A stretch of DNA of 64,000 bases from a virus. The notes beneath the pieces are model-generated. The model was not told where the DNA came from. It was given only the letters and a program-made list of their open reading frames with translations, and made no database searches. Both the position numbers and the translations under genes were made by a program. The DNA lies in the IMG/VR virus record IMGVR_UViG_3300047586_000081, positions 3,014 through 67,013 of that record, one strand, 5' to 3'. This document shows positions 3,921 through 41,036 of the stretch, piece by piece (positions within the stretch are counted from its first letter, which is position 1; each line of letters starts with the position of its first letter).

Positions 3921-4622
3921 ATGCAGATCAAGCGCAAGCTAGTGCAGGGCCTCTTCGATGACCTGCTAGAGCTGATGATGGGCGAGTCCTGCGATCACGA
4001 TGTCGGCATCTGCTACTGCTCCATCCTGGAGCACATCGATGCCGCACAGCGCGCTCTCGCGGACGAGCCCGAACCCCTACGACGAGGCCAACCCGCCCCC
4101 AGACGATCCGATGCTGATGCCGTGATGGATCCCCTGATCGAGCAGCTCGCACGAGAAACTCGGCCACTCCCGCGGGGCGTGACCTTTGTCGCGGGCCGCA
4201 CTCTCCAGGCTTGCGAGATCTGCGATAACCCGGTGGACTCTGCTGGCTGGCCCTTCACGGCCACGCGCTGCGGAGACCACCTGACAACCCCGTATCCAAT
4301 GCACCTAGACCTGCACGACTACCTCGATCAGAGGTGGGCCGCGGCGGTGACGTACCAGTGGTACCACAATCACATGAGGTTCTGGATCATGGACGTAGGC
4401 GACGAACTCTACGACGACGGCGTGACCAGCGGACTGCTGGAGGACGACATCGTTGGCTACTTCAGCGAAACTGGCACTCCGTGCGGGTGCCCCATCGACT
4501 ACCACCTGGCCGATTGTCCACTCCGCACTGGAGAGGGCGCGTCCGACTACGAGCGAGATCCCTACGGAGACGACCGGCCCCTTCGGACTGACGACTACGA
4601 CGACGACGAGACCGTATGGTAA
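3921..4622 (+). CDS. hypothetical Cys/His-rich protein
   Basis: GGAG before ATG; CDH..CYC, CEIC and CGC..HLADC motifs. Confidence 0.7.
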   Translation: MQIKRKLVQGLFDDLLELMMGESCDHDVGICYCSILEHIDAAQRALADEPEPLRRGQPAPRRSDADAVMDPLIEQLARETRPLPRGVTFVAGRTLQACEICDNPVDSAGWPFTATRCGDHLTTPYPMHLDLHDYLDQRWAAAVTYQWYHNHMRFWIMDVGDELYDDGVTSGLLEDDIVGYFSETGTPCGCPIDYHLADCPLRTGEGASDYERDPYGDDRPLRTDDYDDDETVW

Positions 4623-5131
4623 AGATCAGACAGTCACCCATCCCGGGCTGGGCCTGGGACCTGATAGAGCAGGTTGAGCGCGGCGAGCGCCAGACCGGGC
4701 TGGTGCGGGAGATCCGCTGGCGGACGAAGCGCGGTGGTATCTACGACCGGATGATCGCCGACGCCAAGGCAGGACACATACGCGCCACGCCCGAGCATCT
4801 CGACAAAGCCGTCCAGGGCTGGATCGAGCGACGGGATGAACGCGGCCGTTGGTCACACGGTTGGGCCAGGGGAGGCGTCGGAGCCTTCTGGCGGATCGGG
4901 ACAATCTCCATCACGTGCGGTACCGACCCGGAGGACGCTCGTATGGTGGTGCTACACGAGATGGCCCATCTCCTGACTCCTCTGTGGTCGCACCACAACA
5001 AAGAATGGCAGCGCAACGCCGCCCGACTCTACCGCAAGTACGGCGGACCCCTCATCGTAGCGCACGCCATCGAGAACGAGCGGTACGCGCTCCTACAACG
5101 ACGCTTAGCAAAGGAGTACCCCAGTGAATGA
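4616..5131 (+). CDS. zincin-like (SprT-like) metallopeptidase
   Basis: VVLHEMAHL (HExxH) followed by HHNKEW. Confidence 0.7.
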   Translation: MVKIRQSPIPGWAWDLIEQVERGERQTGLVREIRWRTKRGGIYDRMIADAKAGHIRATPEHLDKAVQGWIERRDERGRWSHGWARGGVGAFWRIGTISITCGTDPEDARMVVLHEMAHLLTPLWSHHNKEWQRNAARLYRKYGGPLIVAHAIENERYALLQRRLAKEYPSE

Positions 5132-5369
5132 TCTCGACAACCTATCCATCGACGAGCTGAAGGCCATGCTGCCTTTCGACAAGTTGCTGCGCTGGATCGT
5201 GGAGACCGACGAGCCAGACGATCAGTGGCTGGCCCGCATCTCTCTGCTGAGCAAGGCAGACATCCCCGTCAACGCGAAGAACCTGAGCCGTATCGGCGGC
5301 TGCTCCATAGACCTCGCCCTCGGAGCGATGGGCGGGCTGGTAGCCAAGGGCTATCTGGAGGAAGCGTGA
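5124..5369 (+). CDS. small protein, possible winged HTH
   Basis: LSRIGGCS...LVAKGYLE. Confidence 0.55.
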   Translation: MNDLDNLSIDELKAMLPFDKLLRWIVETDEPDDQWLARISLLSKADIPVNAKNLSRIGGCSIDLALGAMGGLVAKGYLEEA

Positions 5370-5414
5370 CATCTATGCTACACTCTGTAGCACCAAGTGG
5401 AGAGGCTTTATCGT

Positions 5415-5675
5415 ATGAACAGTAGCGCAGTCGTGTTGGTCACCGTGACCGGCGGCGTCGTGGACGTGGCAGAGCCCGTCTACGGAGATGGTGCACGAGT
5501 CATCCTGATCGACTGGGACGACCTAGGCGAAGGCGGGTGGACGGGCCTCACTCGTACAGAGTGGATCAAGGGCAACATCCGCGATCTCGTGAGCATCCCC
5601 GGTCCCCTACACCCCGCAGTGCATGAGGCGCTGCGATCCCTCCAGCGCGAGCTAGAGAAAGACGAGGACAAGTAG
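5415..5675 (+). CDS. hypothetical protein
   Basis: VTVTGGVV...LIDWD motif; extended -10 TGCTACACT upstream at 5376. Confidence 0.65.
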   Translation: MNSSAVVLVTVTGGVVDVAEPVYGDGARVILIDWDDLGEGGWTGLTRTEWIKGNIRDLVSIPGPLHPAVHEALRSLQRELEKDEDK

Positions 5676-8115: not shown

Positions 8116-8682
8116 ATGATCCGAAAACGGTTCGCAGCTTTGGCGGCGGCCTTCGCGCTGCTCGCCTTCCTCATCCCGGCCGCAGCCGGACCAGTAGCAG
8201 CCTGCCCGACGCCAACACCTTCGCCGACGCCAGTCGTGACGCCTACGCCGACTCCCACGCCGACTCCCACGCCGACGCCTACGCCGACGGTAGAGCCGAC
8301 GCCAACGCCGACCCCGGAAGTAACGCCAACGCCGACCCCACCTGTGGAACCGACACCGACACCGACACCGGTAGAACCGACGCCGACGCCAATCGTGACG
8401 CCGACGCCCACGCCAGTCGTGACGCCCACGCCAGAACCGACGCGTGGTCTCCCTGTCGAGACGCCAACCCCGACGCCAGGCTTCGCCTGCCCGCCAGGGA
8501 CTGAACCAGGCAAGACCACAGCCGAGGGCTGTGTCTTCGTCACGATGCCGCCAACCTCGACCCTACCGTGGACCTCGACGGACAGCGGCAGCAACGGACT
8601 GCCCATTCCCCTTCTCCTGCTCGTCGTTGTGCTCGCAAGCGCGGCCTCTGCCGTCCTCCTGTTCAGCCGACGTAGGAGCTAA
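8116..8682 (+). CDS. secreted/membrane-anchored Pro-Thr repeat surface protein
   Basis: Signal peptide, long PT repeat, MPPTS motif, C-terminal TM helix and RRRS tail. Confidence 0.85.
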
Positions 8683-22883: not shown

Positions 22884-24899
22884 CTAGGTGATGCTCGCTA
22901 CCACAGCGGAGAAGTTTCCGCCATGTGAGTTGATGAAGTGACCCAGGGGTGCGGAGAGCCCCGGAAACCCGAAAGCAACAGCATACCCGGCGCTGTCACC
23001 CCCGGATGGATACGAGTGCGCAAACTGGAGCAGGCCCAGCCCGGCGTACGCATTGAAGCCCGCGCCGTACGTGCTTTCCGCACCGGCGGCGATCACGAGC
23101 GCCGTGCAGACAGATGGCGTGACTACCGGCAGGAAGCTGCCCTGGGCAGCTCCCGTGATGGCGCCTGACTGATCGAGAGTGCCTGTGAGCCCAGACCACT
23201 CACTCGCGTGGAACCCGCAGTATGTCGTGTCGCTGTACGTGACCGTAATGCCGGTATCCGCCGAGCCGGAAACGATACCGACCCAGATCTCACAGTGGGG
23301 GCTAGAGCTGGCCGTGCTCTCAGCCAGCTTCGACCACGATACGTTCGTCTGTGTGATCGAGGAGATGTTGGTGCCGCCTTCGCTCTCCGAGCACAAGACG
23401 AGGACGTTCCCGTTCGTCGGAGTCGCGCCCAGGGTCGCCGTGGCACTCCCTTGGTCAGCCGCCGTAGAGGTGACTTCTTGCACAGGCAACCGCGCTCCCG
23501 TACTGCCACCCCCGCCCGGGGCGCCGGTTCCACCTGTAGGGCCAGTCGCACCAGTAGGACCACCAGAGGGGCCAGTTCCACCGGTGCCACCGGTCGCGCC
23601 AGCAGTTCCTGTCCCACCTGTTCCGCCAGCTGCGCCTGTACCGCCCGCAGCACCGGTGCCACCAGTGCCACCCGTGCCGCCGGTGCCACCAGCAGATGAC
23701 CAGGCCGGGGAGCCCGAGACAACTTCGAGGACCTGACCCTCGTCTCCAACGGGCAGCCGAGTAGGGGCACCGCTAACGCTACCCGCAGCCCTGATGAAGA
23801 CGTGACCACCCGCGGCGTGAGGGCTCCCGGGGTTGGTCCATTCAGAAGTCAGCGCTCCGACCGTGGTTACATTCGAGAGAACCTTGTAGGAAAGAACAAA
23901 GTCGTGCCAGGTGTTTGGGTGACCCTCGATGCCCCTACTGTACCCAGCCGGGTCCGCCACGGTCGGCAAGCTGCCAGTGCTGGTGCTCTCACCGCAGAAC
24001 GTCAGATCTACCCCGTTGCTGCCCGCCCAGGTGCCCAGTTCCGGGAGCGGGCACGTCTCCGAGGCGGCGGCCTGCGTCCCATACTGAGCCGAGCCTGGGA
24101 TCGCTTGTTCTGCACCAGAAAGGGCGATGCAGATAGCCATCAGCCCACCGGCGGTCGCAGAAACGGTCACACTCGCCCCGAGCGAACCGGTGTCCACGAT
24201 AGCGAACAGGCTCAGGTACCTGTCGGTTGACGGCTGTGGCGAACCCAGCGGAGTCCATCCACTAGGGGTCGAAGGGCTGTTGTCACTAAACACACCGAGA
24301 ACCAGCACGTCACCGACTACGTGCCCGGTCGGGAGCGTCACGACCACAGACGTGGTGTACCCATTGCCGTTGTAGGTGGGTGTGTCGCGCAAGGCTGCGG
24401 TTCCGCTACCAATACCGGTACCGCCCACGATCAGATCACCAATCTGCGTCATTGGGTTGGACATGCTGCTGCCATCACCAGAGCCCGCAGCACCAGTGCC
24501 GCCAGTACCGCCCGTGGCGCCCACCGCTCCGGTCCCGCCCGTGCCGCCTGTACCGCCTACGCCGCCGGTGCCGCCCGTATCGCCAGCCGCTCCTGTGCCA
24601 CCAGTGCCACCAGTGCCGCCTGTACCGCCCGCGCCAGACCCACCAGAGCCAGCAGCTCCCGTGCCACCCGTTCCGCCAGTACCACCGGTGCCACCGGTGC
24701 CACCGGTGCCGCCCGCCCCAGAACCACCCGTGCCTCCGCCGCCATAGGTATGCAGAGACTCCAAGGCGGCGTGGACAGTGGTCCCACTGCCGATGGTGCC
24801 CGTGGCGCCCGTAGCGCCGATCTGGCCATCGACCAGGACGTTGGAGTCGAGATCGGTGCCGTGGTGATCGTAGAGGCGGGAGTGGGTGTTTCGGCTCAT
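22884..24899 (-). CDS. tail fibre with Gly-Gly-Thr repeats
   Basis: Two GGT runs, NPMT..GDLI.G and PTRLPVG..GQVL.V...P.W fibre motifs, beta-rich domains. Confidence 0.85.
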   Translation of the reverse strand: MSRNTHSRLYDHHGTDLDSNVLVDGQIGATGATGTIGSGTTVHAALESLHTYGGGGTGGSGAGGTGGTGGTGGTGGTGGTGAAGSGGSGAGGTGGTGGTGGTGAAGDTGGTGGVGGTGGTGGTGAVGATGGTGGTGAAGSGDGSSMSNPMTQIGDLIVGGTGIGSGTAALRDTPTYNGNGYTTSVVVTLPTGHVVGDVLVLGVFSDNSPSTPSGWTPLGSPQPSTDRYLSLFAIVDTGSLGASVTVSATAGGLMAICIALSGAEQAIPGSAQYGTQAAASETCPLPELGTWAGSNGVDLTFCGESTSTGSLPTVADPAGYSRGIEGHPNTWHDFVLSYKVLSNVTTVGALTSEWTNPGSPHAAGGHVFIRAAGSVSGAPTRLPVGDEGQVLEVVSGSPAWSSAGGTGGTGGTGGTGAAGGTGAAGGTGGTGTAGATGGTGGTGPSGGPTGATGPTGGTGAPGGGGSTGARLPVQEVTSTAADQGSATATLGATPTNGNVLVLCSESEGGTNISSITQTNVSWSKLAESTASSSPHCEIWVGIVSGSADTGITVTYSDTTYCGFHASEWSGLTGTLDQSGAITGAAQGSFLPVVTPSVCTALVIAAGAESTYGAGFNAYAGLGLLQFAHSYPSGGDSAGYAVAFGFPGLSAPLGHFINSHGGNFSAVVASIT

Positions 24900-26443: not shown

Positions 26444-29295
26444 TCCCAGCCTCCGTGGTTGAAGCGCACGTAGACATTGTGCTCTCCGAAATCGCCAAAC
26501 GTGATTAGGCCCGCACTGGTCACGGTATAGTCACGGCCCTGCATCTGGAAGATGCCGTTGTCCCAGAGCTGTACCGAGGCCGGGATGACCGCGACCCCCA
26601 GGTCGAGTGTGTCGCCGTATATTGCCTCGTCGTCCGTGTACCATGCAGAAGCGGAGAGTCCGATCCACGGGCCGCCATCTAGAATGTCCACCTTCTCCAG
26701 AGTCAAAACGCCTTGGGCTGATCCTGGCGGGAGTGGTTCTGGCCACACCGGGGGCGGCGAGGGCGCGGTCCACGTTGCGGACGCATCCAAAGTCAAGAAG
26801 TCGCTCTCGTACAGACTGATCCAGACCCACTCGATGTGGCCGAGCCCTATCGTGTTCCCCATCCAGCCTTCAAACCACCCCACTGGGGTCATCACTGGCC
26901 CGTAGGGAATGCCGGTATCCGTAAAGTCGGCCCTGTGAGTGCTGATGACAATGCTGCCGTGCGAGGGGTCGTACTCGAACGCGAGGCCGTACGGGAGGCC
27001 GTCTCCGGGGGGGTGGCCCCCGGCGGCCAGGTAGGCTGCGATGTCGTCGCCCTCGGGGGGAGGCCAGCTAAATGGGTTATAGGCGATAGGAGTCCCGTCT
27101 TCATATTTGATTGTGACATCGCCGTAACAGTATCCAAAGGCCGACAGAGAATATGTCACGTCTACCGTGGTCGGCACTATCACAGATGGGTGGAGGGAAA
27201 TAGAAACATCCGGCGTCCAGTGGGTGGAGTCGCCGGGCAGGACGTAGGATTTGGCCTCTCCTGATACGGTCTCAGAGTGGGCGTGGGTAATAGGCCAGGG
27301 AGAGAGAGTGGTGATGAACCCAGAGGTGCCCGTCAGGTCTTCGATGGCAATTGCGCGTGGTGCGTAGTCTTGCTTGGCCAGGTTGGAGATGGTGACCTCG
27401 GGCAAAAACGCAGGCTTCCAGGGGCAGCTATTGGTCCACAAAGCGGGCTCGCCCTCGCTCGACTTCCAGGCGCGCATGTGAAGCCCCAGCTCATCAACAC
27501 GAGCACGAAGATTGATGGGAACGCCAATCCACTCTTCTGGCGCTCCCATATTGGTCGGTACCCGCGCGCTGTCATCGAACCAGTCACATCGGTCCCAGTC
27601 CGCCACCGCCATTACCGCCGAGCTATCGGTTGCCACATACATAGCAAACACGATGTACGGGTATTCGGCGTAGTCCGCCTCGTGAACCCCCCAGGCGTAC
27701 TGTAGAAGGACACGCCAGATCCACCATTCTGGGTTGGTCGGCGCCGTGACGGTCACGTTTCTCCAGAGGTACTCGAAGGGGTAGGTGAAAGCATCGTCAA
27801 ACACAACGCCCATCCCTGGCCAGGAGTGCATCCCGGCCGCGAGCATGGCCTCGGCGTCCATCGTAGCGACGCCGTCCGAGACCGAGGCGCCGCCAAGCGA
27901 GTCGTCATCCTCCGTGGGGCGCAGCCATGTCCCGGTGGGCGCGGACCCGTAGCCTTCCCCAGCAGGCAAGAAGCTGTAGGAATAGCCACTGGGCGGGAAG
28001 TGGTCTGGGTCTCCCCAGGTACCTGCACTGAGCGTGCGGTGGAAGTAGTCGTACCAGTGCGGGAGGCTGTAGTCTATTCTGGGGATGCGGGGGAAATACG
28101 GGTTGAACGTGTCGCCCCAGAAGCTCTGGAACATGCTCCACGGCTCGTCGATCTCGTGAGAAAGAGTCAGGACGTATTGCGGATCCGATTTGGTGGGAAA
28201 CGAGATCGTCATGGCTCGTATGGGCACTACGTCGGATATGTCCTCGCCCCCAGTGGAGAACACCTGACTCTCGATCTGCACCTTGGTGCCCACCTGAAGG
28301 GCCATCCCGGGATTGTCGAAGATCGTGCAGGTGAAGCTCACCTGGTCATCCTTGTGGCCACGCTTATTCTCGGCAGAGCCGTAAACGACCGAGTCGGCGC
28401 GTCTCTGAAGAGCGTCGGGCTTGGAGATGTTTTGTCGATACTCGCCCCACTGCCAGAGCCCATGGCGCACGGCCGAGGCATCATCGTAGGCACGTGCGAA
28501 GCCCATCGTGGGATCACCCATTGCCGAGCCCCACTCCATTGCTTCGTTCGCCAGGTTGGAGCCGTTGGAGTTATGGGTCAGCTCACGATAGCCGATATGG
28601 TTGCTGGCGGTCGGGTTATCGGTCAGCACGTAGTCCGTGGTTGGAGTGTCAACATCTACCCAGAAGACCTTGAAGGAGGGGTCGATATAGTACACGCCCA
28701 TCGGAACACGGTTGATGATCTGCATTAGCTCAGCTACGGTCAGCCCGCCGTTATAGTAGGCGGTCTGGTCGGGGTTGGGGCTCCCTACGTTTTGGATAGA
28801 GGAGCTATCCCAGGTACACAGCTCCCCTAGGTCAGTATAGTGAGTCAGGTTATAATCGACCACCACATCTCCCGGAGACCCTTCCGCCCACCAGTAATCG
28901 TAGCCATTGACGGTGGCGGAATGCTCCGAGGGAGATGGTAGGGGATACTGCTCTGGATGCGCTTTGTTGTATGTTACACGCTTCGACCACAGGATGTTGA
29001 CATCGGTGCCCTCCAGGGTCCAGATCAGGTCGCCAAGTTTGGCGGCAGATGTGTCGGCTACGGTGAAAGCGAACCCGCGTCGTATGCGCAGTAGGAAGCC
29101 GGTGAATGCCAGCACGTCATCTAGGAAACACTGGACCAGGGAGCCAGCCACGAAGCTATATTTATGGGTCGTGTCCTTGACGCGGATCGTGAGGTTACCG
29201 GGCGTCCCATTTGCTCGCATCGTGAAGTTTGTCTGCGCGAACTCCACGTCGGCGGTGATGTCTGTCGCCGCCACTTCGATGCGCACTACGGTCAT
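26440..29295 (-). CDS. minor tail / baseplate hub (Tal-like) protein 1 with long C-terminal extension
   Basis: Follows TMP; FTGFL..I and YYIDP. Confidence 0.75.
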   Translation of the reverse strand: MTVVRIEVAATDITADVEFAQTNFTMRANGTPGNLTIRVKDTTHKYSFVAGSLVQCFLDDVLAFTGFLLRIRRGFAFTVADTSAAKLGDLIWTLEGTDVNILWSKRVTYNKAHPEQYPLPSPSEHSATVNGYDYWWAEGSPGDVVVDYNLTHYTDLGELCTWDSSSIQNVGSPNPDQTAYYNGGLTVAELMQIINRVPMGVYYIDPSFKVFWVDVDTPTTDYVLTDNPTASNHIGYRELTHNSNGSNLANEAMEWGSAMGDPTMGFARAYDDASAVRHGLWQWGEYRQNISKPDALQRRADSVVYGSAENKRGHKDDQVSFTCTIFDNPGMALQVGTKVQIESQVFSTGGEDISDVVPIRAMTISFPTKSDPQYVLTLSHEIDEPWSMFQSFWGDTFNPYFPRIPRIDYSLPHWYDYFHRTLSAGTWGDPDHFPPSGYSYSFLPAGEGYGSAPTGTWLRPTEDDDSLGGASVSDGVATMDAEAMLAAGMHSWPGMGVVFDDAFTYPFEYLWRNVTVTAPTNPEWWIWRVLLQYAWGVHEADYAEYPYIVFAMYVATDSSAVMAVADWDRCDWFDDSARVPTNMGAPEEWIGVPINLRARVDELGLHMRAWKSSEGEPALWTNSCPWKPAFLPEVTISNLAKQDYAPRAIAIEDLTGTSGFITTLSPWPITHAHSETVSGEAKSYVLPGDSTHWTPDVSISLHPSVIVPTTVDVTYSLSAFGYCYGDVTIKYEDGTPIAYNPFSWPPPEGDDIAAYLAAGGHPPGDGLPYGLAFEYDPSHGSIVISTHRADFTDTGIPYGPVMTPVGWFEGWMGNTIGLGHIEWVWISLYESDFLTLDASATWTAPSPPPVWPEPLPPGSAQGVLTLEKVDILDGGPWIGLSASAWYTDDEAIYGDTLDLGVAVIPASVQLWDNGIFQMQGRDYTVTSAGLITFGDFGEHNVYVRFNHGGWE

Positions 29296-32200
29296 TGCAC
29301 AATCCTTCGCAGACCGAGCAGGGCGGCTTTCTGGTCGAACGCCTTCATGGCGGCATCAGTCAGGCTCTGGATGTCGGAGTCGCTGCGGACCTGTGGATTG
29401 TTGAACTGGAAGACAACCGTGTAGTTGCCTCCGCCAGTGCCGCCGCCATCGGCCATGCTGACGGCCCGCGGGTTGCGCAAGACGGCGACGTGTTCAGCCC
29501 CCGCCTCGCCGACAATCATCTGAGTCGCCCCGGCGGTCATGCCCACAATGCCAGCGGCACGGTTCTGTCGCCCACTGCCGACATCAGTGGACCCAGCCAC
29601 AGGGCCAAAGTTCTTCAGGAAATCCGAAGCCCCAACATTCATCATGCCCCAGGCCGTCTTGATGTCCACGAAGATCTGGCCGAATGCCGCACCGGTCTGA
29701 TTGAAGATCGCGGCGGAGTCGTTGATGATAGTCGTAGCGGCCTGAGCACCCTCGGTGAGCCAAGTCTGTGCTTTGTTGAGGTATGGCTGCTGGGCAGCAT
29801 CCAGATACTTCATGGCGGCTTCGACCTTGGCGGTGTCAATGGTGATCTGGCGCCCGGTCGTCAGCAAGTAGAGCTGCTGACCCAAGTCCACCGCTTGCCG
29901 CAGGTTCCCAATATCGACGATGTTCACTTCGTTGCCGAACATCTGCTTCTGGATGTCCAGCTGCTTCTGGGCGTACTGTGCTTCGAGCTGGGCCTCCTGC
30001 ATGCGCGCGGCCCGCTCTTCCGGCGTCTCTCCGGGGGCCATGAAGCCCGCAATCGCCAGCTGAAGGTTGATCTGCCGCTGAGAAAGCTGGAAGGAGAGTT
30101 CCTGCGATTGGCGACCCAACAGGATGTTCTGCCGCTCGTAGTAGCCCAGGTTGTCAGACGCGCCCTTGCCGATCTTGCCGGTCAGCTGCTCGGCATCCAC
30201 CATAGAGCGGTTCGCGATACGCAGCTCATTGTTGTACTGAGCGGTCTGATAGACCACTTGCTCTCTGGCCAGAGACTCCTGGAGGGCTTCCTTCTGGATC
30301 CCCAGCTCGGCGACCTTGGTGATGTCCATCTGGGCATTGAGCTGGGTTTGCGAGGTGGCGGCATCCTGAGCATTCTGCTTAGCCAGCAAACCCGCCTGCG
30401 ATGCCCCGGCTCCCGCCCACCGTGCCCCCGTATAGGCATTGATCTGGTCCTGTGTTAGCGATGCCCCAGCGCCCTGGTCCCCCTGCTGAGTGTAGAGAGT
30501 GCCATACGGAGCCCCGCCAACCATGGGTCCTCGTGGGAGATCACCCGTCTTGCCCGTGTACGGGCTGCCGCCGTAGGCAGCGCCGCCGGTCACAGAGTTA
30601 GGGGGTGGGGTGGTAGGAGTAACGGTGGGCAAAGTCGGGATAGCGGGCGCAGCGGCTGGCGTTTGCACCTCACCAGTGGGCATGGCGGGGATCTGGGCAA
30701 CCAGCCCAGCGATATCAGTCTTACCGGCATCTATTAGCGCCTGGTATGTGTCCTGGGCGCCTGGGACAATGCCCTGCAAGAGGCTTTGCATCGCGTCCGT
30801 GCCACCCGTCGTGGGAAAAGTCGCGCCATAGGGCAGGATCGGATTGGCCAGCTGACCCAGTGCGAAGTTGGCCGGAATGACTTGCTGAGCCTGAAGCTGA
30901 GCAGTGGCCGCCATCTGGTACTGTTCAGCGGGGATGGTGCGCGAGACCATCTGCTGAATGATCTGCTGGTAGGACGGCATGGCATTGCCCTGGGCCTCCT
31001 GCTGGCCCATCAAAGCAACATCGGCCGCGGTCAAATCCCGGGTGGCGTTGGTGGTGTCTACCATAGCCACGCCCATGTCATCCAGCTTCTGGATGGTCGG
31101 TTCATCTACGCCAGCCGCCTCCATGGCCTTGCGGCTCTTGATGAGCTGATCCGAAGTGGAGTTGAACTGGAGCTTGAAAGTGCTGCCCGTCTTGCCCAGG
31201 TTGTCATTCCAGGACTTCAGGGCCAGCGTGCCCGTATCAAGCTGACGCTTCCAGTCCTGGGCAATGGGACCTGCCTGGCTCACATCAAGAGCGGAGACGC
31301 CCTGGGCGTTCAATGGCGCGTTCTGGTAAGCCTGGATAAAGCCTTTCGCCGGGAACGGTCCAGAAGCGGACCCTCCCGCCAGCAGTCCGGCACCCAAGCC
31401 GATGGCTCCACCAGCCAGAGCGCCCAACGGGTTGAACCCGGTGCCCACAAAACCCATCGCAGCGCCTGCGGCCATGCCAGCGAAGGGGGCCACCTGGGCA
31501 GCCTGACTTGGGCCACCGAGAACGCTACCCAGCTGCTCGAACTCGCTAGGAGTGGCTCCAATAGGAGTTCCGAACAACCCGCCCGTGGAGCGAGTCACAC
31601 CTGGAATGCCCCCGGCAGGCTGGAAGGGGCCTGTGGTAAAGCCCGCGTTCGCCGCCATTCCCTGGTTTTGCTCCATCACGTACACACCGGAGCGAATGAG
31701 ATCGTATTGGTCAGAGAGCGCCTTGTTCCCAGCCTCCATCAGGGAGCGCTGTGCTACATATGGAGTGATGACCTGGGCCGCGGAGTCTCCAAGCCCTGAT
31801 TGTGCCATGGTGGCGGCCACGGCCGCCTGGGTGTTGCCGCCCGAGGCCAAGATCTGAGCGCCGGTGGCTTGTGTCAGTTTGCCCATGACATTGACAAAGC
31901 CCTGACCGCGTTCCGTGGTCTGACCAACGATGGTGCTTAGCTCTGACAGCCCTGCATCGAGGCCCTTCTCAGCTACCTGGAAAAGCTGCATACCTACCAG
32001 CATGCCGCCCGCACCGGCCAGGATCGACCGCGCCATCATCGGCTTCGTCAAGAACTCCGATGTCTTGGCTGCCGCTTCCTCCGCAGCAGCTGTCTTACCC
32101 TTTTGCCCCGCGATGAGGGGCTCCAGGACCGTCATTTGCTTGCGAATGTCCGCCGCCTGCTTTTTGGCGCCTACGGCCTCGGCGTCTCGCAGCGATGACT

Positions 32201-35200
32201 GCTTGACTGCGTAGTCACCTTCGAGCTGGGCGAGCTTGGACGCCTCTCCCTGAGCCTGTTGGATGTCGAAGCGAGCCATGCCTGCTAGGTGCTTGATCTT
32301 GCCCCGGCCGCCCAGGGTCTGAGCTGTAATCTGCTCGAACAAGACCGGCAGGGCGCGAACAGGGGTCATTGACTCTTGCTCGCTGATACGAGCGCTCATC
32401 TCAGCTAGACTGCGTCGCCGTTCCTGCTGCGCTTCACGGGCTGGTTCTTTGGCCTCGTACCTCTGGCCACTGGTAACCCGCACGCGCTCCTCCGCTGGCT
32501 CGCGAGCTGGCTTCTTGGCCGCCGCCTGCGCGGCTTTGGTCGCGGCATTTGCCTGCGCTACATACGCATCCAGCTGACCGGCGGGGATAGTCTCCTGCTC
32601 TCCGGTGATGATCGCGGACTTCCGCCCGCGTCCCTTGAAGATGTCGCCGATGTTGACTGTCCCGCCCATCGCGACGTTGCCCTGCGGGCCGCCAGCCTCG
32701 CCCTTGCCCATCAGGATCGGAGGCCAGTTCTCGACCGTGACTGGAGTGGGGCCGCCGCCGCCGCCGTGCGGTGTCAGCTTGACGAACTTGCCCGCAGGAT
32801 CATGCCAGTTGCCAGCCGCATCTTGGACGATGCCGCCTTTGTCAAAGCCCGTCAGGTCCTTGGCGTTGTCCTGCATGCGCGCGACCCAGCTGGGAACGGT
32901 GTGTAGCTGGTCGTGGGGGATCACCACTCCGCCCTGGGGTGGACGACGCCATACCTGCTCCCCGTGCATGCCCAGCATCTCGACCTGGCCGGTGTCGCTG
33001 ACCCAGGTCTCGTGCCCCTTTTCGCCAACGCGGAACTTCTGGGCATCAGCATAGCGCCCCAACAGGCCGCCTCCGGCCATAGGACGGTACTTGCCTCGCC
33101 CGCGCAGCCCACTAGACATGCGCACTTCGTCGTATGGTCGGCCCTCAGTGGCAACATTGTGCATATGCTGGCGGACGTGCAGTGCTTCTATGCGCTGATC
33201 TCGAAGCTGCTCATAGCCCAGATCGGCTGCCTCAATGAGTTTGTCGGATAGGCGGCTCTCTTCGTAGGGGCGACCTTCGTGCTCGACATTCCAGTCGCGC
33301 ATGTGGCCAAGAATGGTGGTTTCCAGCGTATCTGATGGTGTCTTTTGGCCGATACCCCCAAGGACCGCGTCCCAGGTTGCGGTAGGACCGCCAGGGATCT
33401 GGCCCTCGAAGATGCCGCCCTTGCTCAGGCCACCCTGACTTCGAGCAGAGTCCTTGATGCGTCCGGTGTTGTCCACCAGGGGTAGGCTGTGTTCCTGCGC
33501 GCGCCGCACCCACGGAGAGACGCGAGGCTCTTCCATATACGGAGAGACGGGGGCCGCCGCTGGCTGCTCGCGCAGAGCGCGCAGCTTCTCCATGTAGCGG
33601 CTCTCGCGGGCCTGCGTATCCCCCTCGATACCTCCCAGGCCCCGCAACTGGTCCATGCTGGCAAACATCCCACCCCAGGCCAGGCCAGGGAGCTTGGTAT
33701 GCATCGCGTCTTCTATGGTCAGGCCGACGCGCTCCTTGGCTATGCCCGTCGCTGCTGAACCCGTGGCAGCCACGACGGCCTTAGCCTGGTCGCGAGCGAT
33801 GGCCTTCGTGCGCTTGCGTGCTTCGATAGCGTCCAGTGCCGCCTCGTAGGTCTTGGTCGGTCCACCGACCCCTCCTGCGGGCTTGACGGTTGGCTCTGAC
33901 TCGGGGATCCGGGTGCCAGTCAGGTCCGCAAGCGAGTCCACCGGCGGCAGGCCCTTGGCCCTACGCGCCTGGTTGGCCTCGAACAGCTCGGTGCCGACGT
34001 TGACAATGCCGGTGCCGCCCTCGAAGCCAAGCGTCGCGCCTGGGCTAAAGGGCACGTCTGTCCTGCTTACAGCGAACTTCTTCTTGTCGGCCTCAGACAG
34101 CAACCCAAAGCCCTTGTCCGAGGCGTCCAATGCCTTCTTGCGAGCGAGGGTCTCTTCACTGCGCTGCTTGGAGACCAGGCCCCCAATGCCGCCCTTGATA
34201 CTGGAGGTCGCCATGTCGAGAGCGCTGGCACGGTCGGCATGGATGTAGGGCCGCGCGGCGCGACGAGTAGCGCGCTGCTGCTTGCCCACCGTCTTGGCGC
34301 CTCGGCCAGCCGTCAGCGAAGACAGGATCGACTGGGCTTCGACGTGCTGCCCCCCCATGCCCAGCTTCAGCGCTTTGGCCAGCTGGGGGTTGAACTTGGA
34401 GAAGTCTGCCTCCTGGAAAGCCTTGAGCAGTTCAGGCGGCATCGGCGCAGGAGCCGTTTGCTCGGGCTCCTTATACAGGACCTGCCGTGCCGCGTCACTC
34501 ATCGCGAACTTGAACTCGGGGCTAAGTCCCGTCAGTAGGCTGGTGTCAATGCCCGCCTTCTTGGCTGCCGCCGTCCACTCCTTATCCGACAGATCTAGCG
34601 TTGGATCATGACGAGCAAACGAGCGGTTCCAGTAGCGCTTGTCAGGCCCGAGTGGCGCCTGTAGAGCCGGAGGCACATTCTGGACCTTGCTCTTCTTGGC
34701 TCCTACAGATGGGGCCGGGTGGGCAAACCCCCCGGGCGCCACCTGGAGCGCACCGTGGCGCGGGGTAGTCGGCCTGGGCGTGGTCTTGGGATAGGTGGGA
34801 CGCGCGACGATAGGCCCCTCCTCCTCATACACGTCTTGGGCCGCACCAGTGGGGACACCCGTTGTTGGCCGAGACGGTCGGCCACCGCTCGGTCGCACTC
34901 CGCCGCCGCCACCGCTCGGTCGTGCTCCGCCACCGCCACCCGCGGGCCTGCCACCCGTAGTGCCGCCGCCGCCAGGGCGGGCAACCTCAAGCACAGCCGG
35001 GATCACAACCGGCTGCATGTTCTTGAGATCTGACTGGATCTGGCTGCGGATCTGGCCGAGCTGGGTCTTGTTCCAACGGATTGTGGCCGGGACAAGGACC
35101 TCGTGGCCTTTCTCGACTTCCTTGAACCCGTCGTCCACGGAGTGAGTCAGGGCCTTACCAGAGAACTTGACTTTGGGCTCGACTACCTGCTCACCGATTT

Positions 35201-35375
35201 TGGCGATCTCGTCTTTGATGCCCTGCCAGTCCCCAGACTTTTGCAGGCCAATCCTGACACGCCGCTCCCTGGAGGTTATGCCCTTCAGCTTCTCTTCGAG
35301 CGTGCTTGTATCGGTCTCCAGTTTGGAGAGATCAACGCCAATTCCAATCTTGAGATCGCCAAGGTCGGTACTCAT
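29292..35375 (-). CDS. tape measure protein
   Basis: 2027 aa; LGDLKIGIGVD N-terminus; Ala/Gly/Gln helical; C-terminal GEAGAE; follows the frameshifted chaperone. Confidence 0.9.
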   Translation of the reverse strand: MSTDLGDLKIGIGVDLSKLETDTSTLEEKLKGITSRERRVRIGLQKSGDWQGIKDEIAKIGEQVVEPKVKFSGKALTHSVDDGFKEVEKGHEVLVPATIRWNKTQLGQIRSQIQSDLKNMQPVVIPAVLEVARPGGGGTTGGRPAGGGGGARPSGGGGGVRPSGGRPSRPTTGVPTGAAQDVYEEEGPIVARPTYPKTTPRPTTPRHGALQVAPGGFAHPAPSVGAKKSKVQNVPPALQAPLGPDKRYWNRSFARHDPTLDLSDKEWTAAAKKAGIDTSLLTGLSPEFKFAMSDAARQVLYKEPEQTAPAPMPPELLKAFQEADFSKFNPQLAKALKLGMGGQHVEAQSILSSLTAGRGAKTVGKQQRATRRAARPYIHADRASALDMATSSIKGGIGGLVSKQRSEETLARKKALDASDKGFGLLSEADKKKFAVSRTDVPFSPGATLGFEGGTGIVNVGTELFEANQARRAKGLPPVDSLADLTGTRIPESEPTVKPAGGVGGPTKTYEAALDAIEARKRTKAIARDQAKAVVAATGSAATGIAKERVGLTIEDAMHTKLPGLAWGGMFASMDQLRGLGGIEGDTQARESRYMEKLRALREQPAAAPVSPYMEEPRVSPWVRRAQEHSLPLVDNTGRIKDSARSQGGLSKGGIFEGQIPGGPTATWDAVLGGIGQKTPSDTLETTILGHMRDWNVEHEGRPYEESRLSDKLIEAADLGYEQLRDQRIEALHVRQHMHNVATEGRPYDEVRMSSGLRGRGKYRPMAGGGLLGRYADAQKFRVGEKGHETWVSDTGQVEMLGMHGEQVWRRPPQGGVVIPHDQLHTVPSWVARMQDNAKDLTGFDKGGIVQDAAGNWHDPAGKFVKLTPHGGGGGPTPVTVENWPPILMGKGEAGGPQGNVAMGGTVNIGDIFKGRGRKSAIITGEQETIPAGQLDAYVAQANAATKAAQAAAKKPAREPAEERVRVTSGQRYEAKEPAREAQQERRRSLAEMSARISEQESMTPVRALPVLFEQITAQTLGGRGKIKHLAGMARFDIQQAQGEASKLAQLEGDYAVKQSSLRDAEAVGAKKQAADIRKQMTVLEPLIAGQKGKTAAAEEAAAKTSEFLTKPMMARSILAGAGGMLVGMQLFQVAEKGLDAGLSELSTIVGQTTERGQGFVNVMGKLTQATGAQILASGGNTQAAVAATMAQSGLGDSAAQVITPYVAQRSLMEAGNKALSDQYDLIRSGVYVMEQNQGMAANAGFTTGPFQPAGGIPGVTRSTGGLFGTPIGATPSEFEQLGSVLGGPSQAAQVAPFAGMAAGAAMGFVGTGFNPLGALAGGAIGLGAGLLAGGSASGPFPAKGFIQAYQNAPLNAQGVSALDVSQAGPIAQDWKRQLDTGTLALKSWNDNLGKTGSTFKLQFNSTSDQLIKSRKAMEAAGVDEPTIQKLDDMGVAMVDTTNATRDLTAADVALMGQQEAQGNAMPSYQQIIQQMVSRTIPAEQYQMAATAQLQAQQVIPANFALGQLANPILPYGATFPTTGGTDAMQSLLQGIVPGAQDTYQALIDAGKTDIAGLVAQIPAMPTGEVQTPAAAPAIPTLPTVTPTTPPPNSVTGGAAYGGSPYTGKTGDLPRGPMVGGAPYGTLYTQQGDQGAGASLTQDQINAYTGARWAGAGASQAGLLAKQNAQDAATSQTQLNAQMDITKVAELGIQKEALQESLAREQVVYQTAQYNNELRIANRSMVDAEQLTGKIGKGASDNLGYYERQNILLGRQSQELSFQLSQRQINLQLAIAGFMAPGETPEERAARMQEAQLEAQYAQKQLDIQKQMFGNEVNIVDIGNLRQAVDLGQQLYLLTTGRQITIDTAKVEAAMKYLDAAQQPYLNKAQTWLTEGAQAATTIINDSAAIFNQTGAAFGQIFVDIKTAWGMMNVGASDFLKNFGPVAGSTDVGSGRQNRAAGIVGMTAGATQMIVGEAGAEHVAVLRNPRAVSMADGGGTGGGNYTVVFQFNNPQVRSDSDIQSLTDAAMKAFDQKAALLGLRRIVQ

Positions 35376-38027: not shown

Positions 38028-38386
38028 CGCTGCCGCCTGATCGTGACCTCAAGGGCCTCTTGCCAGGTGGCGTTGCGAATGTCGATGACCTGGTAGGAGT
38101 CACCGAGGATGGTCACGCGGTCATTCGGAATGATGTCCGTGGCCACAGGCACCCACAGGCGGTGGGTTTGCACGGTAACCTTGCGGCCACCTTCCTGAGT
38201 CGAGTCATTGACCGGCGTTGAGAACAGCCAGCCCCAGACCGTCTCGACCTCCACGTCCGCCCGGGCGTCGTCGCCGTAGATGCCCTCGGTGAAGGCGGGC
38301 CGAAAGATCGTGATCTGCACCTTCTCGTTGGGATCCACCATAGCCTGAACCGCAGCCAGCTGCGAAGTGGAGAGAAGCGGTTTCAT
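38024..38386 (-). CDS. head closure / head-tail joining protein
   Basis: TDI.P.DRV.I.G..YQV; position. Confidence 0.8.
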   Translation of the reverse strand: MKPLLSTSQLAAVQAMVDPNEKVQITIFRPAFTEGIYGDDARADVEVETVWGWLFSTPVNDSTQEGGRKVTVQTHRLWVPVATDIIPNDRVTILGDSYQVIDIRNATWQEALEVTIRRQR

Positions 38387-39330
38387 CTGAAGCCGCCAAA
38401 GATGTAGTCTCCGAGCAACAGCTTGGCCGCGTCAGGCATCTGGTTGCCAGGCATCTGTACTCCCCGCAGAGGCCGCGGCTTACGAACAGAGAGTTCGCCG
38501 AGGTGAACTTCCTCCAGCGGCTCCATGCCCTTAGAGGCCAACTCGCGCTGCCCCAGTAGGTAGACGATGGTCTCACCGGTGGCCGCGGCGACCGCGCCGG
38601 GCAGGTTGTGGCGATACGTTAGCGTCACTAGACCCGCGGTCGGCGTAACCAGCTTCACGGTTCCCTCGATGGAGTTGAATGTATAGTCAGAGGTGGGGGT
38701 CTTTGTGACGCCATCGATCTTCACGACGGGCGTAACCGTCAAATCCCAGAACTGGTTCTGGGCGCGGTACGTGTCCGGCATGACCGAGTCCGACGTGGTG
38801 GCCTCGATGTCGTCGAGGACCTCGACCATCAGCGGCTCATCCACCTCATCAAAGTCGTAGCCATAGGTGTACTTCATCACACCAACAGGGCGAGCCAGCC
38901 CCAAGTTGGGGACCAGGCCGGATCCGAAGACACCGATGGAGGTGACGGCCAGGGCGACGACTTCCACGTAGCCGCTGGACTCGTTGACGTACATCGACTG
39001 ACGACTGACGGAGTCTGTCTCGGTCACGATGTCCACGTGCTGCGAGTTGGTCACGTCGATGCGGAAGGCCAACACATCCTTGATCGGAGTGTGCCATGGC
39101 CAGAAGCGCCGCGTCCCGTACTGCTGGTCGGTGCCGATGTCCCAGTTGTGCTTCTCGTTGGTGATGGTGCCGCCCAGGAAAGAGTGGCGCTGAGGCAAGA
39201 GAGGGACGTTGCAATAGGTATCCACCATGGCCGACGCTTCGTCACAGAGCGAGCGCAGCGCCAGGTCGGAAATACCCACGAGGTCGATGCCCGATCCGAT
39301 GCTTCGGAGTCGAGCGGGCGTCATGTACAT
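38383..39330 (-). CDS. head-tail adaptor
   Basis: AAGGAGG then ATG 39330; YMT...L, AS..VD.YC, YTYGY, LP..V..A. Confidence 0.8.
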   Translation of the reverse strand: MYMTPARLRSIGSGIDLVGISDLALRSLCDEASAMVDTYCNVPLLPQRHSFLGGTITNEKHNWDIGTDQQYGTRRFWPWHTPIKDVLAFRIDVTNSQHVDIVTETDSVSRQSMYVNESSGYVEVVALAVTSIGVFGSGLVPNLGLARPVGVMKYTYGYDFDEVDEPLMVEVLDDIEATTSDSVMPDTYRAQNQFWDLTVTPVVKIDGVTKTPTSDYTFNSIEGTVKLVTPTAGLVTLTYRHNLPGAVAAATGETIVYLLGQRELASKGMEPLEEVHLGELSVRKPRPLRGVQMPGNQMPDAAKLLLGDYIFGGFR

Positions 39331-39344
39331 CGACCCTCCTTGAG

Positions 39345-39705
39345 AGCAGGGGGTCAGCCTCCTGCGTACCATCGCAGGGCACGACCCCCTGGAAGTGAGA
39401 ATGACCCCAGGCCCCGCGTTGCTGTCGGCTGGTGGCTTCCCGGCTAGACCCCACAACCCCCCACTCGGGGGTTGAAGGGGTCGTGGACGTGTCCACTTTT
39501 GCCGGAACCAGCGGGGTAGAAACCCCATCTAGGTTGTCGGAGCAGCCCCTCGCTCCCGGGGGGGAGGGCTTCGGCGCGGTGGCAGCGCCCATCGCTAAAA
39601 AAGGCGATGGTGCAAGCCGTGGCCTGGGATCAAGCCGGGAGCCACCCGGCGTAGACGGCGAGACAGGGTGGGCCGCTGGAGGCCAGCCCACCCCTCGCCG
39701 CGAAA
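39345..39705. ncRNA. putative large structured RNA between capsid and adaptor genes
   Basis: About 375-nt gap almost entirely paired (see findings). Confidence 0.55.
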
Positions 39706-39707
39706 GG

Positions 39708-41036
39708 CTATGACCGGCGAATACGGACCTTGGTGGAGAAGGTTGGAGCCTTCACCGCCAGACCCCACATGCCGAAGATGATGTACAGGTGGGTGAGCTG
39801 TCCGCTGATCCCGATGGGGATGTCGAGGACGGTCGGCCCATCCGTGCCCAGGTACGGCATGGAGATGGTCTCTTCGTCGAGCAGGTAGAGGTCCGCACAG
39901 GTCGTCGCAGCCGAGAAGGCTGAAGACGGGCTGTAGGCCCCGATGGAGTCGCCCGGAACGGTGGCGAAGGGCAGAGGACCGAACACGGTGTTCACCGCAT
40001 TGGTCAGCACGCCGACGCCGACGTTGACGAGGTTCTCGGGAGCCATGTAGCGGACGTTCTTGTCCTGCTGGATGTCGAACGCATGCTTGTCGAGCGGGTT
40101 GCCCCAAATGATGGAAATCGTTCCACCGAGGTTCTCCACAATCGCGCAAGCCATGTCGATCTTGGCGCGCATGTCATCCGGCGAACCCGCCAGGACATCC
40201 GCGTTCTCAGCACCAGGGCTGGAGCGCAGGATGTACCGGAGGCCGTCGAAGCCATTCACATCGTACACACCGGACTCATTGGACGTGGTGCCCGCGGAGT
40301 CGGTGCTTGTGCCCGAGAAGATCTGCTTCTGCATGGTGTGCGCAATGGCGCGCAGACCACCGGTCAGCTCAAGCTGCTCGGGATTGTACCCGGCACCACC
40401 CTGAAGGACAGCGAACTGGCTCTTCAGCGAGATACCACGCCTGGTGGCGACCACCGCGACGTTGGTCGTCTGGCGGAGGTACACGTTCTGATCGTCGGTG
40501 ACGGTGCCCAACTCAGCCATAAACTGAGCAGCGCCGAACGCCGTGATCTGGTTGTAGGCATGCACGAGGCCGTTCGCCGGTTCCTTGGGGAACCGCTCCC
40601 ACGCCGGGAACATGCGAACGTACAGCTCGTACAGCACCGGCTCAAGGTCCTGACGGATCAGGGCGGTGGCGCCAGTGGTGTCCAGGGCCTTGCGAAGCGT
40701 CGGGTTGCCCGACATCTCGATGGCGTGCTGGACAGCGTAGCCGCCTGCGTTGGCCCAGGCGCTGAACGGGATGCCGCCATCCTTCTCCGCCTGCATGGCG
40801 AAGAGGGCGAGCAGCTCCGGGAGCGTCTTCTTGCGAAGCTCCTGGCGCACTGCCAGAAGATCCTGGCGGCTCATGAAGCCGCGTTGGGTCAACGCGCTTC
40901 CGCCATCGACGATGCCGACGGGCGGGGTGGCGGGAGTGGTGTTGGGGGCCTCATTGCGGGCCGCCAACTGAGCCTGGATCTTCTCCAGGGTTTCATTTGC
41001 GGACTTGAGCAGGTTGGCCTGCTCTTCGGGATCCAT
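39708..41036 (-). CDS. major capsid protein
   Basis: 442 aa after the protease; ALIRQDLE, FDGL..IL, GLAVKAP. Confidence 0.9.
   Translation of the reverse strand: MDPEEQANLLKSANETLEKIQAQLAARNEAPNTTPATPPVGIVDGGSALTQRGFMSRQDLLAVRQELRKKTLPELLALFAMQAEKDGGIPFSAWANAGGYAVQHAIEMSGNPTLRKALDTTGATALIRQDLEPVLYELYVRMFPAWERFPKEPANGLVHAYNQITAFGAAQFMAELGTVTDDQNVYLRQTTNVAVVATRRGISLKSQFAVLQGGAGYNPEQLELTGGLRAIAHTMQKQIFSGTSTDSAGTTSNESGVYDVNGFDGLRYILRSSPGAENADVLAGSPDDMRAKIDMACAIVENLGGTISIIWGNPLDKHAFDIQQDKNVRYMAPENLVNVGVGVLTNAVNTVFGPLPFATVPGDSIGAYSPSSAFSAATTCADLYLLDEETISMPYLGTDGPTVLDIPIGISGQLTHLYIIFGMWGLAVKAPTFSTKVRIRRS

Follow-up and report, generated by a model that had tools for sequence, protein, structure and literature searches.

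The question raised by this locus is what a long, heavily folded spacer is doing directly after the major capsid gene of an uncultured phage, and whether its folding reflects an RNA function or merely the way in which the spacer arose. The stretch analysed here (the window, 64,000 nucleotides (nt)) comprises bases 3014-67013 of a 67,013-base IMG/VR virus record, IMGVR_UViG_3300047586_000081, which is estimated to be 94% complete. The spacer separates the major capsid protein gene from a head-tail adaptor-like gene on the minus strand and had been proposed, from the sequence alone, to encode a novel and abundantly expressed non-coding RNA (ncRNA). We found that no other 383-nt stretch of the window folds as stably as the capsid-adaptor spacer and that, in relatives, the same junction is an insertion hot spot for homing endonucleases. 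The explanation that we favour, with moderate confidence, is that the spacer is an insertion scar which would be transcribed in the late mRNA and whose role, exerted in cis, would be to stabilise or attenuate the capsid message. The features that define the locus are as follows.

39708..41036, minus strand: major capsid protein gene, 442 amino acids (aa), phrog_752 (major head protein), E 3.3e-11
39331..39707, minus strand: whole non-coding spacer, 377 nt, with flat GC by codon position and internal open reading frames (ORFs) without family matches
38383..39330, minus strand: head-tail adaptor-like gene, phrog_442, E 4e-05

The sole public sequencing run containing the stretch is a DNA run of a peat metagenome, possibly the one from which it came, in which it was recovered as a single contig with zero variants and thus without population covariation; none of the public runs listed as containing the stretch is an RNA run.

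Boundaries and folding of the spacer

The capsid gene ends in a TAG stop codon at 39710-39708. Alignments of the capsid protein with those of relatives reach residues 439-442 of 442, and the capsid C-terminus is therefore complete. The adaptor-like gene encodes 315 aa from the ATG at 39330, with another ATG at 39324, and the adaptor homologues of relatives align from residue 1. With the capsid protein aligned to its last residues and the adaptor from its first, the true non-coding gap is therefore 39331-39707, and its predicted position after the major capsid gene was confirmed. A self-splicing intron in the capsid gene was rejected because the capsid ORF is complete, the adaptor aligns from residue 1 and no intron model matched. 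A frameshift extension of the capsid protein was likewise rejected, as no slippery heptamer was seen before the stop codon.

The spacer had been described as non-coding, and this description held. GC content in the ORFs of the gap ranges from 0.59 to 0.76 over the codon positions without an excess at the third, and the corresponding values for the flanking genes are 0.60-0.62, 0.42-0.45 and 0.81-0.83. No Pfam or PHROG match was found for the internal ORFs at E up to 1. It is extremely unlikely that the spacer hides a coding sequence, be it a small protein or a decayed, partly translated homing-endonuclease gene. Open frames do exist, one of 93 aa on the plus strand and one that extends the adaptor gene in frame by 67 codons upstream of its ATG. 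Against them stand the flat GC, the lack of family matches, the absence of the 67-codon extension from all relatives and the lack of any likeness to the endonucleases of relatives. A decayed endonuclease gene was rejected on this last ground, since the best tblastn match of these endonucleases in a 451-nt target had an E of 0.28.

The piece used for folding ran from the capsid stop codon to the adaptor start codon (383 nt). Its minimum free energy (MFE) was -218.4 kcal/mol on the minus strand (z-score -6.53) and -211.1 kcal/mol on the plus strand (z-score -5.53). On either strand 0 of 100 dinucleotide shuffles were as good, placing the folding energy far beyond chance. When 398 pieces of 383 nt were stepped across the 64 kb, their mean was about -154 kcal/mol (standard deviation 14), and the best piece other than the spacer reached -202 kcal/mol. 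The middle 253 nt alone gave z-scores of -4.9 (minus) and -5.2 (plus). Every stem listed in the original prediction was recovered in a list of inverted repeats and in the helix table of the MFE folds, including 39347-55/39383-91 with the inner 39361-66/39373-78, 39402-13/39621-32, the three-way sub-domain 39428-39512, 39513-26, 39589-39610, 39634-50 and 39655-39701. The wording "almost fully paired" was nevertheless an overstatement: 67% (minus) and 69% (plus) of the bases are paired in the MFE folds, and on the minus strand the centre of the spacer (39527-39580) is poorly defined, with helix probabilities of 0.15-0.54. In the full spacer, G-U pairs extend five helices of probability >0.9 on the minus strand (seven G-U pairs) and two such helices on the plus strand (three G-U pairs). 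As modelled, the G-U count and the fold of the full spacer lean mildly towards the minus strand, that of the mRNA.

Three other pieces of the window are also very stable. The piece 8161-8543 reaches -202 kcal/mol on the minus strand and only -104 kcal/mol on the plus strand; it lies inside an ORF at 8116..8682 on the plus strand, and its strong fold probably reflects the base composition of coding sequence. The pieces 40641-41023 (-201.9 kcal/mol, plus) and 24481-24863 (-197.4 kcal/mol, minus) lie within the 5' part of the capsid gene and within an ORF at 22884..24899, respectively. All three were set aside as comparable elements because they are inside ORFs.

The predicted parts of the spacer, in the direction of the minus strand, are listed below.

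39655..39701, minus strand: hairpin A, 8 + 10 base pairs (bp) with a 3-nt bulge and a G-rich 5' arm; helix probabilities 0.96-0.99
39634..39650, minus strand: hairpin B, GCCGGG/CCCGGC with a 5-nt loop; probability 1.00
39402..39632, minus strand: multibranch domain C, closed by a 12-bp long-range helix (39621-39632/39402-39413); probability 0.98 in every flank context
39589..39610, minus strand: hairpin CCAUCGC/GCGAUGG in domain C, with a U-rich 8-nt loop; probability 0.96
39428..39512, minus strand: three-way sub-domain in domain C; helix probabilities 0.84-1.00
39347..39391, minus strand: hairpin D, with a 9-bp outer and a 6-bp inner stem (39361-66/39373-78); probability 0.94-1.00
39334..39341, minus strand: Shine-Dalgarno sequence of the adaptor gene, AAGGAGGG, read from the sequence

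In total the spacer is predicted to form more than ten helices. Hairpins A and D and the 12-bp closing helix had pair probabilities of at least 0.98 in seven flank contexts, and the closing helix consists of 12 contiguous minus-strand pairs of which one is G-U. The three-way sub-domain is built from the helices 39507-12/39428-33, 39501-06/39439-44, 39492-96/39483-87, 39477-82/39447-52 and 39467-74/39454-61. The adaptor Shine-Dalgarno sequence was predicted to be paired in all flank contexts, with varying partners. Imperfect inverted repeats are present at 39426-39453 and 39625-39651, and no flanking direct repeat was seen on reading the sequence.

The capsid-adaptor junction in related phages

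The comparison set consisted of 95 related loci holding both genes, with 73 distinct gap sequences. The gap measures 52-108 nt in 79 of the 95 loci and at least 155 nt in the other 16, and relatives have a median gap of 66 nt; the spacer of the window lies outside the usual size of about 50-110 nt with one to three hairpins and is about six times longer than those of relatives. Among the 61 distinct gaps of up to 260 nt, one of which (L055) is coding, the z-score is below -2 in 56 (median -3.2) and the longest contiguous helix is at least 8 bp in 60 (median 13 bp). The hairpin starts at a median of 11 nt after the capsid stop codon and ends at a median of 18 nt before the adaptor ATG; a start at 1-36 nt past the stop codon or an end at 4-54 nt ahead of the ATG was taken as the position typical of the group. 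Hairpin sequences vary widely among the relatives and the architecture is constant.

The hairpins of relatives also carry marks of a strand. Of the 58 distinct gaps no longer than 110 nt, 53 have a hairpin with a G-rich 5' arm (C-rich in 3, equal in 2; binomial p 8e-13), although some gap rows are close kin and the counts are not fully independent. The 5' arm is often GGAGG-like and the 3' arm C-rich and CCUCC-like. Fourteen of 21 tetraloops are of the UNCG type (10 UUCG, 2 UACG and 2 UCCG) and none is CGAA; CTTCGG is found in 12 gaps and its complement in 1. A U-rich tail follows only 7 of the 58 hairpins. The G-rich 5' arm, the UNCG loops and the scarcity of U-rich tails therefore indicate an RNA hairpin on the late message and not a canonical terminator.

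Both ends of the spacer in the window fit this geometry. Hairpin A begins 6 nt past the capsid stop codon and hairpin D ends 16 nt before the adaptor ATG, each at the position of the single hairpin of relatives, and in the MFE helix table G outnumbers C in the 5' arm of both. Folded alone, the module with hairpin A (39651-39707) reached -36.5 kcal/mol (z-score -4.9) and the module with hairpin D (39331-39397, the last 67 nt) -36.1 kcal/mol (z-score -3.6). Judged from sequence and predicted fold, each of the two looks like a complete, ordinary gap module of the relatives. Non-coding gaps of 155-156 nt with three hairpins are present in L037, L080 and L081, the latter two sharing one sequence.

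In 9 of the 95 loci the junction is occupied by reverse-strand HNH_3 or Endonuclease_7 genes, and it is a homing-endonuclease insertion hot spot in these relatives. HNH_3 genes were found in L054, L075, L071, L094 and L052, with two in L092, and Endonuclease_7 genes in L015 and L055; an ORF in L079 differs from that of L094 by one residue. Three of the occupied loci are informative about the way in which such genes enter.

L054:3837-4451, L071:3783-4324 and L092:1006-2086, reverse strand: nuclease-bearing regions

Between the HNH_3 and adaptor genes of L054 and L071 lies a capsid 3' end of the L067 type. The identity is 100% over 20-22 nt, TGA included, and the match extends in L054 to 42 nt with two gaps. 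This capsid end is followed by a 64-nt L067-like gap with a hairpin, up to the adaptor ATG. L092 carries the same L067-type relic between its two nuclease genes, and in each of the three loci 0 of 60 shuffles were as good. Twelve other long or middling gaps contained no relic above chance, and a match in L095 was set aside because it lies inside a likely coding ORF. The relics in L054, L071 and L092 therefore indicate that cassettes entering the capsid 3' end bring a replacement end with them and push the old end downstream.

Other arrangements were observed at the junction. In L095 the gap is 1647 nt long and the region 3970-5455 holds a 355-aa forward ORF without a Pfam family, followed by a hydrophobic-looking ORF of 146 aa. 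In the most distant relatives (L097:3796-4558, and the same in L098 and L099), the capsid and adaptor genes are separated by two forward ORFs (119 and 112 aa), which may encode decoration or accessory head proteins; the scan covered the 119-aa ORF, for which there was no Pfam match. L132 and L133 are located on one viral contig of 130,935 bases, where about 74 kb lie between two separate matches to the capsid C-terminus; this could represent a concatemer, a duplicated assembly or two joined related phages.

The location of the spacer at a break-and-repair hot spot and the strand-symmetric folding of its core would also suit an element acting at the level of DNA, such as cruciforms, protein-binding sites, a recombination module or an altered target that shields the capsid gene end from an endonuclease, and the hexamer GGGGTC/GACCCC occurs five times within 135 nt. 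We consider this very unlikely, since no repeated spacing of binding sites was seen, the genome holds no second copy and the flanking hairpins of relatives bear RNA signatures of the sense strand.

Searches for the element itself covered several collections. It is single-copy in the record. A blastn search of the phage collection gave no match, and a tblastn search of the same collection with the capsid protein was empty; the plasmid collection yielded one match, at E 0.1 only. No homologue of the element was recovered by the protein scan of genome contigs and the adaptor-protein scan, and four pattern scans of viral and genome contigs gave no match. The element is absent from the full records of three relatives, from 97 related loci (blastn and nhmmer) and from 63 loci of a second protein scan (blastn), in 62 of which the gap was assessed. 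The nearest capsid proteins are 45-64% identical over their full length and up to 87% over the last 70 residues. A miniature inverted-repeat transposable element (MITE) or MPME-like element was rejected, given the single copy and the lack of matches in the phage and plasmid collections and the pattern scans.

A candidate relic of the capsid gene within the spacer

A short segment in the 3' part of the spacer resembles the end of the capsid gene that precedes it.

39431..39459, minus strand, sense: probable relic of a capsid 3' end, 29 nt, codons G-M-W-G-L-A-V-K-A-P

In the first blastn search, element positions 252-275 matched capsid 3' ends of relatives. When the element was searched by blastn against 529 kb of related loci, the top match was to the relic site (E 0.004), and 8 of the top 10 matches fell at the same homologous capsid site, on the sense strand, 62-65 nt before the capsid stop codon. 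The segment agrees with the 3' end of the capsid gene of the window itself at 22 of 29 positions (0 of 500 shuffles as good) and with that of L045 at 25 of 29 (0 of 200 shuffles as good under a max-over-75 procedure). The stop codon expected for the relic would fall some 4-7 nt ahead of hairpin D; from there to the ATG would be about 65 nt, a gap of normal size for the relatives. From this sequence likeness, 39431-39459 is probably the relic of a displaced capsid 3' end. In the window the capsid gene is followed by hairpin A, then by about 250 nt and the candidate relic, and finally by hairpin D and the adaptor gene with its ribosome-binding site; the order matches that of the relatives with relics, except that no nuclease gene is present. 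A tandem duplication of the whole junction was rejected because the adaptor 5' profile and the alignments were at chance.

In the predicted fold the candidate relic forms 3' strands of the helices of domain C: of the 60 nt of the relic region, 47 are paired, their partners being seven distinct stretches on the 5' side that are interrupted by four local hairpins. A spacer of this composition might be a neutral scar of an insertion or of faulty break repair at the hot spot. Its stems would then derive from its origin and not from selection, namely from fold-back or inverted duplications around the relic together with GC-rich palindromes, and any role would be limited to hairpins A and D. Several observations agree with such an origin. 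The element is absent from the 95 related loci, the loci of the second scan, the phage collection and the pattern scans; its core folds equally on both strands, as DNA palindromes would; RNA-specific tetraloops are lacking; the 3' strands of domain C are probably a former coding relic; and the centre is poorly defined. Even so, we regard a neutral scar as possible but rather unlikely. Z-scores of about -5 to -6.5 are far from what is usual for decaying sequence, a spine that pairs with seven interrupted 5' segments is unlike one simple inverted duplication, and the reverse complement of capsid 3' ends gave no match in the 5' half. On these fold predictions, the middle of the spacer has too much structure for decaying sequence and is too interrupted for one simple inverted duplication.

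Proposed origin and role of the spacer

In the explanation that we favour, mobile DNA would have inserted into the capsid 3' end at the junction that is used by homing-endonuclease cassettes in relatives. With the incoming piece would have come the 3' end that the capsid gene now has, together with hairpin A and some 250 nt of non-coding DNA, in which hairpin B and the 5' part of domain C are located. The former capsid 3' end, pushed downstream, would survive as the short relic and would still be followed by its original hairpin (D) and by the adaptor gene with its ribosome-binding site. We infer that the resulting spacer is transcribed in the late structural mRNA (minus strand) as two terminal hairpins and a 230-nt multibranch domain, that it functions in cis and that its folding is selected. 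Hairpins A and D would act like the single hairpin of relatives, as a barrier to 3'-to-5' decay and/or as a partial stop, and the capsid message would thereby be kept abundant relative to those of the neck genes. The inserted middle would fold on itself, such that the sixfold longer spacer stays compact and leaves adaptor expression undisturbed.

A number of results speak against this explanation. For the middle 253 nt the two strands fold equally well, and because the core is strand-symmetric in its folding, it does not settle which strand is the RNA. Among the spacer's own loops there is no UNCG or GNRA tetraloop. No U-tract follows hairpin A or D, their tails being GUCUACGC and CUCUCAAG, respectively; as GC-rich hairpins without a U-tract, neither is therefore a canonical intrinsic terminator. 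No homologue of the element was found in any collection searched. With respect to the relic, the match is short (29 nt), and 11 of 4094 overlapping pieces of the window, from about five places including the capsid end, equalled the score of the comparison with the window's own capsid end. A DNA profile of capsid 3' ends gave 1.4 bits with 13 of 1000 shuffles as good (2 of 1000 in a post hoc collinear version), and at the protein level (GLWGLAGKPP versus GMWGLAVKAP) 53 of 1000 shuffles were as good. The approximately 250 nt between hairpin A and the relic show no likeness to endonuclease genes, adaptor 5' ends or the gaps of relatives; comparisons with nuclease-bearing gaps (either strand), adaptor 5' ends and short gaps were all at chance. 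Finally, an anti-Shine-Dalgarno duplex test against background windows was not significant across 13 sequences (Fisher p 0.056) and placed the window at percentile 0.275, and the probability of the anti-Shine-Dalgarno helix dropped from 0.94 to 0.02-0.39 when flanks were added. A spacer that masks the adaptor Shine-Dalgarno sequence until a terminating ribosome opens it was rejected, being unsupported by these duplex and flank tests.

Large ornate RNAs such as ROOL, GOLLD and HEARO, which are several hundred nt long and contain many helices, occur in bacteria and phages. The spacer shares with them its size, its many helices and its phage setting; it differs in matching no Rfam family at E <0.3 and in lacking conservation. 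Covariance models of Rfam 15 detected no family at the gathering threshold in the whole window and the intron models had no match, as the original prediction had anticipated; the best sub-threshold match in the region was mir-6794 (22 bits against a threshold of 74, E 0.32). The predicted lack of tRNA and tmRNA was borne out by ARAGORN, which reported 0 genes in the window.

The spacer, or domain C alone, might still be a stand-alone ncRNA that is processed from the capsid message or transcribed by itself and has a function in trans, such as that of a decoy or sponge, of a guide or of a ribozyme of an unrecognised kind; a mobile cassette may perhaps have carried it as cargo. The element resembles ornate RNAs in size, branching and stability, is located in the 3' part of the late message that should be most abundant, and matches no known family. 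This nonetheless appears doubtful to us. No homologues were found in the collections searched, so that there is no covariation to support it; the core folds equally well on both strands, part of the element is probably the relic of a gene, and relatives manage without it. No sigma-70-like promoter or terminator-like site was found in 39331-39707, and the separate, abundant and trans-acting ncRNA of the original prediction found no support. In a more specific version, domain C and the approximately 250 nt would be carried, as RNA cargo, by a mobile cassette that lacks a nuclease and targets the capsid 3' end; this structured RNA would be released from the late message of highest abundance and act in trans as a decoy, guide or ribozyme. 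That version is in our view quite unlikely; if true, the window would be one case of a wider, convergent phage habit of placing ornate RNAs after the capsid gene.

For the insertion scar with a role in cis, better-known counterparts are available. Intercistronic hairpins such as the repetitive extragenic palindromic (REP) sequences in malEFG and those of the puf operon stabilise mRNA, protect it from 3' exonucleases and set unequal expression within an operon. The mechanism proposed for the spacer would by analogy be the same; those elements are short hairpins, whereas the spacer is a 377-nt composite.

Strong terminators are located directly after the capsid gene in phages T7 and LUZ100, according to a passage in PMC10134795. 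Like the T7 terminator T-phi after gene 10 and its LUZ100 counterpart, hairpin A in the window is strong, GC-rich and placed right behind the capsid stop codon, ahead of neck genes that are needed less, and relatives keep one hairpin at this position, but hairpins A and D lack a U-tract and the spacer holds a 230-nt branched domain. CUUCGG hairpins are reported to occur frequently between phage genes and to help stabilise transcripts (PMC8948821, citing Tuerk et al. 1988). The post-capsid hairpins of relatives are often closed by UUCG, UACG or UCCG on the sense strand, whereas those of the window have no UNCG loop. Free-standing endonuclease genes lie between conserved phage genes, segD between T4 genes 23 and 24 being an example (PMC2988022), and they cluster near capsid genes (PMC10448857). 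The window resembles the T4 seg/mob cassettes in using the same kind of junction, the one occupied in 9 of 95 relatives, and in its candidate capsid-end relic, as in L054, L071 and L092. It differs from them in having no nuclease gene or recognisable remnant and in an insert of only about 250 nt that is densely folded. The element could well work as the known post-capsid hairpins and terminators do, within a known kind of mobile-DNA hot spot, without belonging to a catalogued RNA family.

Read in this ordinary way, the spacer would be one more means by which phages tune the ratio of capsid to neck expression. In this large group of uncultured phages from soil, peat and sediment the junction both carries a conserved RNA hairpin of the sense strand and serves as a hot spot of endonuclease cassettes, and the cassettes leave displaced capsid 3' ends behind. 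The window suggests a possible origin for a long ornate spacer, in which two parental hairpins, foreign DNA and the relic of a gene came to fold together. It also advises caution, as a high folding score alone does not make an RNA gene.

The surrounding genes on the minus strand belong to the structural module. Upstream of the capsid gene lies a 615-aa gene with a weak prohead-protease signal, and head-closure and tail-completion genes follow the adaptor-like gene. Further downstream in the module, an ORF of 2027 aa at 29292-35375 (minus strand) probably encodes the tape-measure protein, judged by its size and position.

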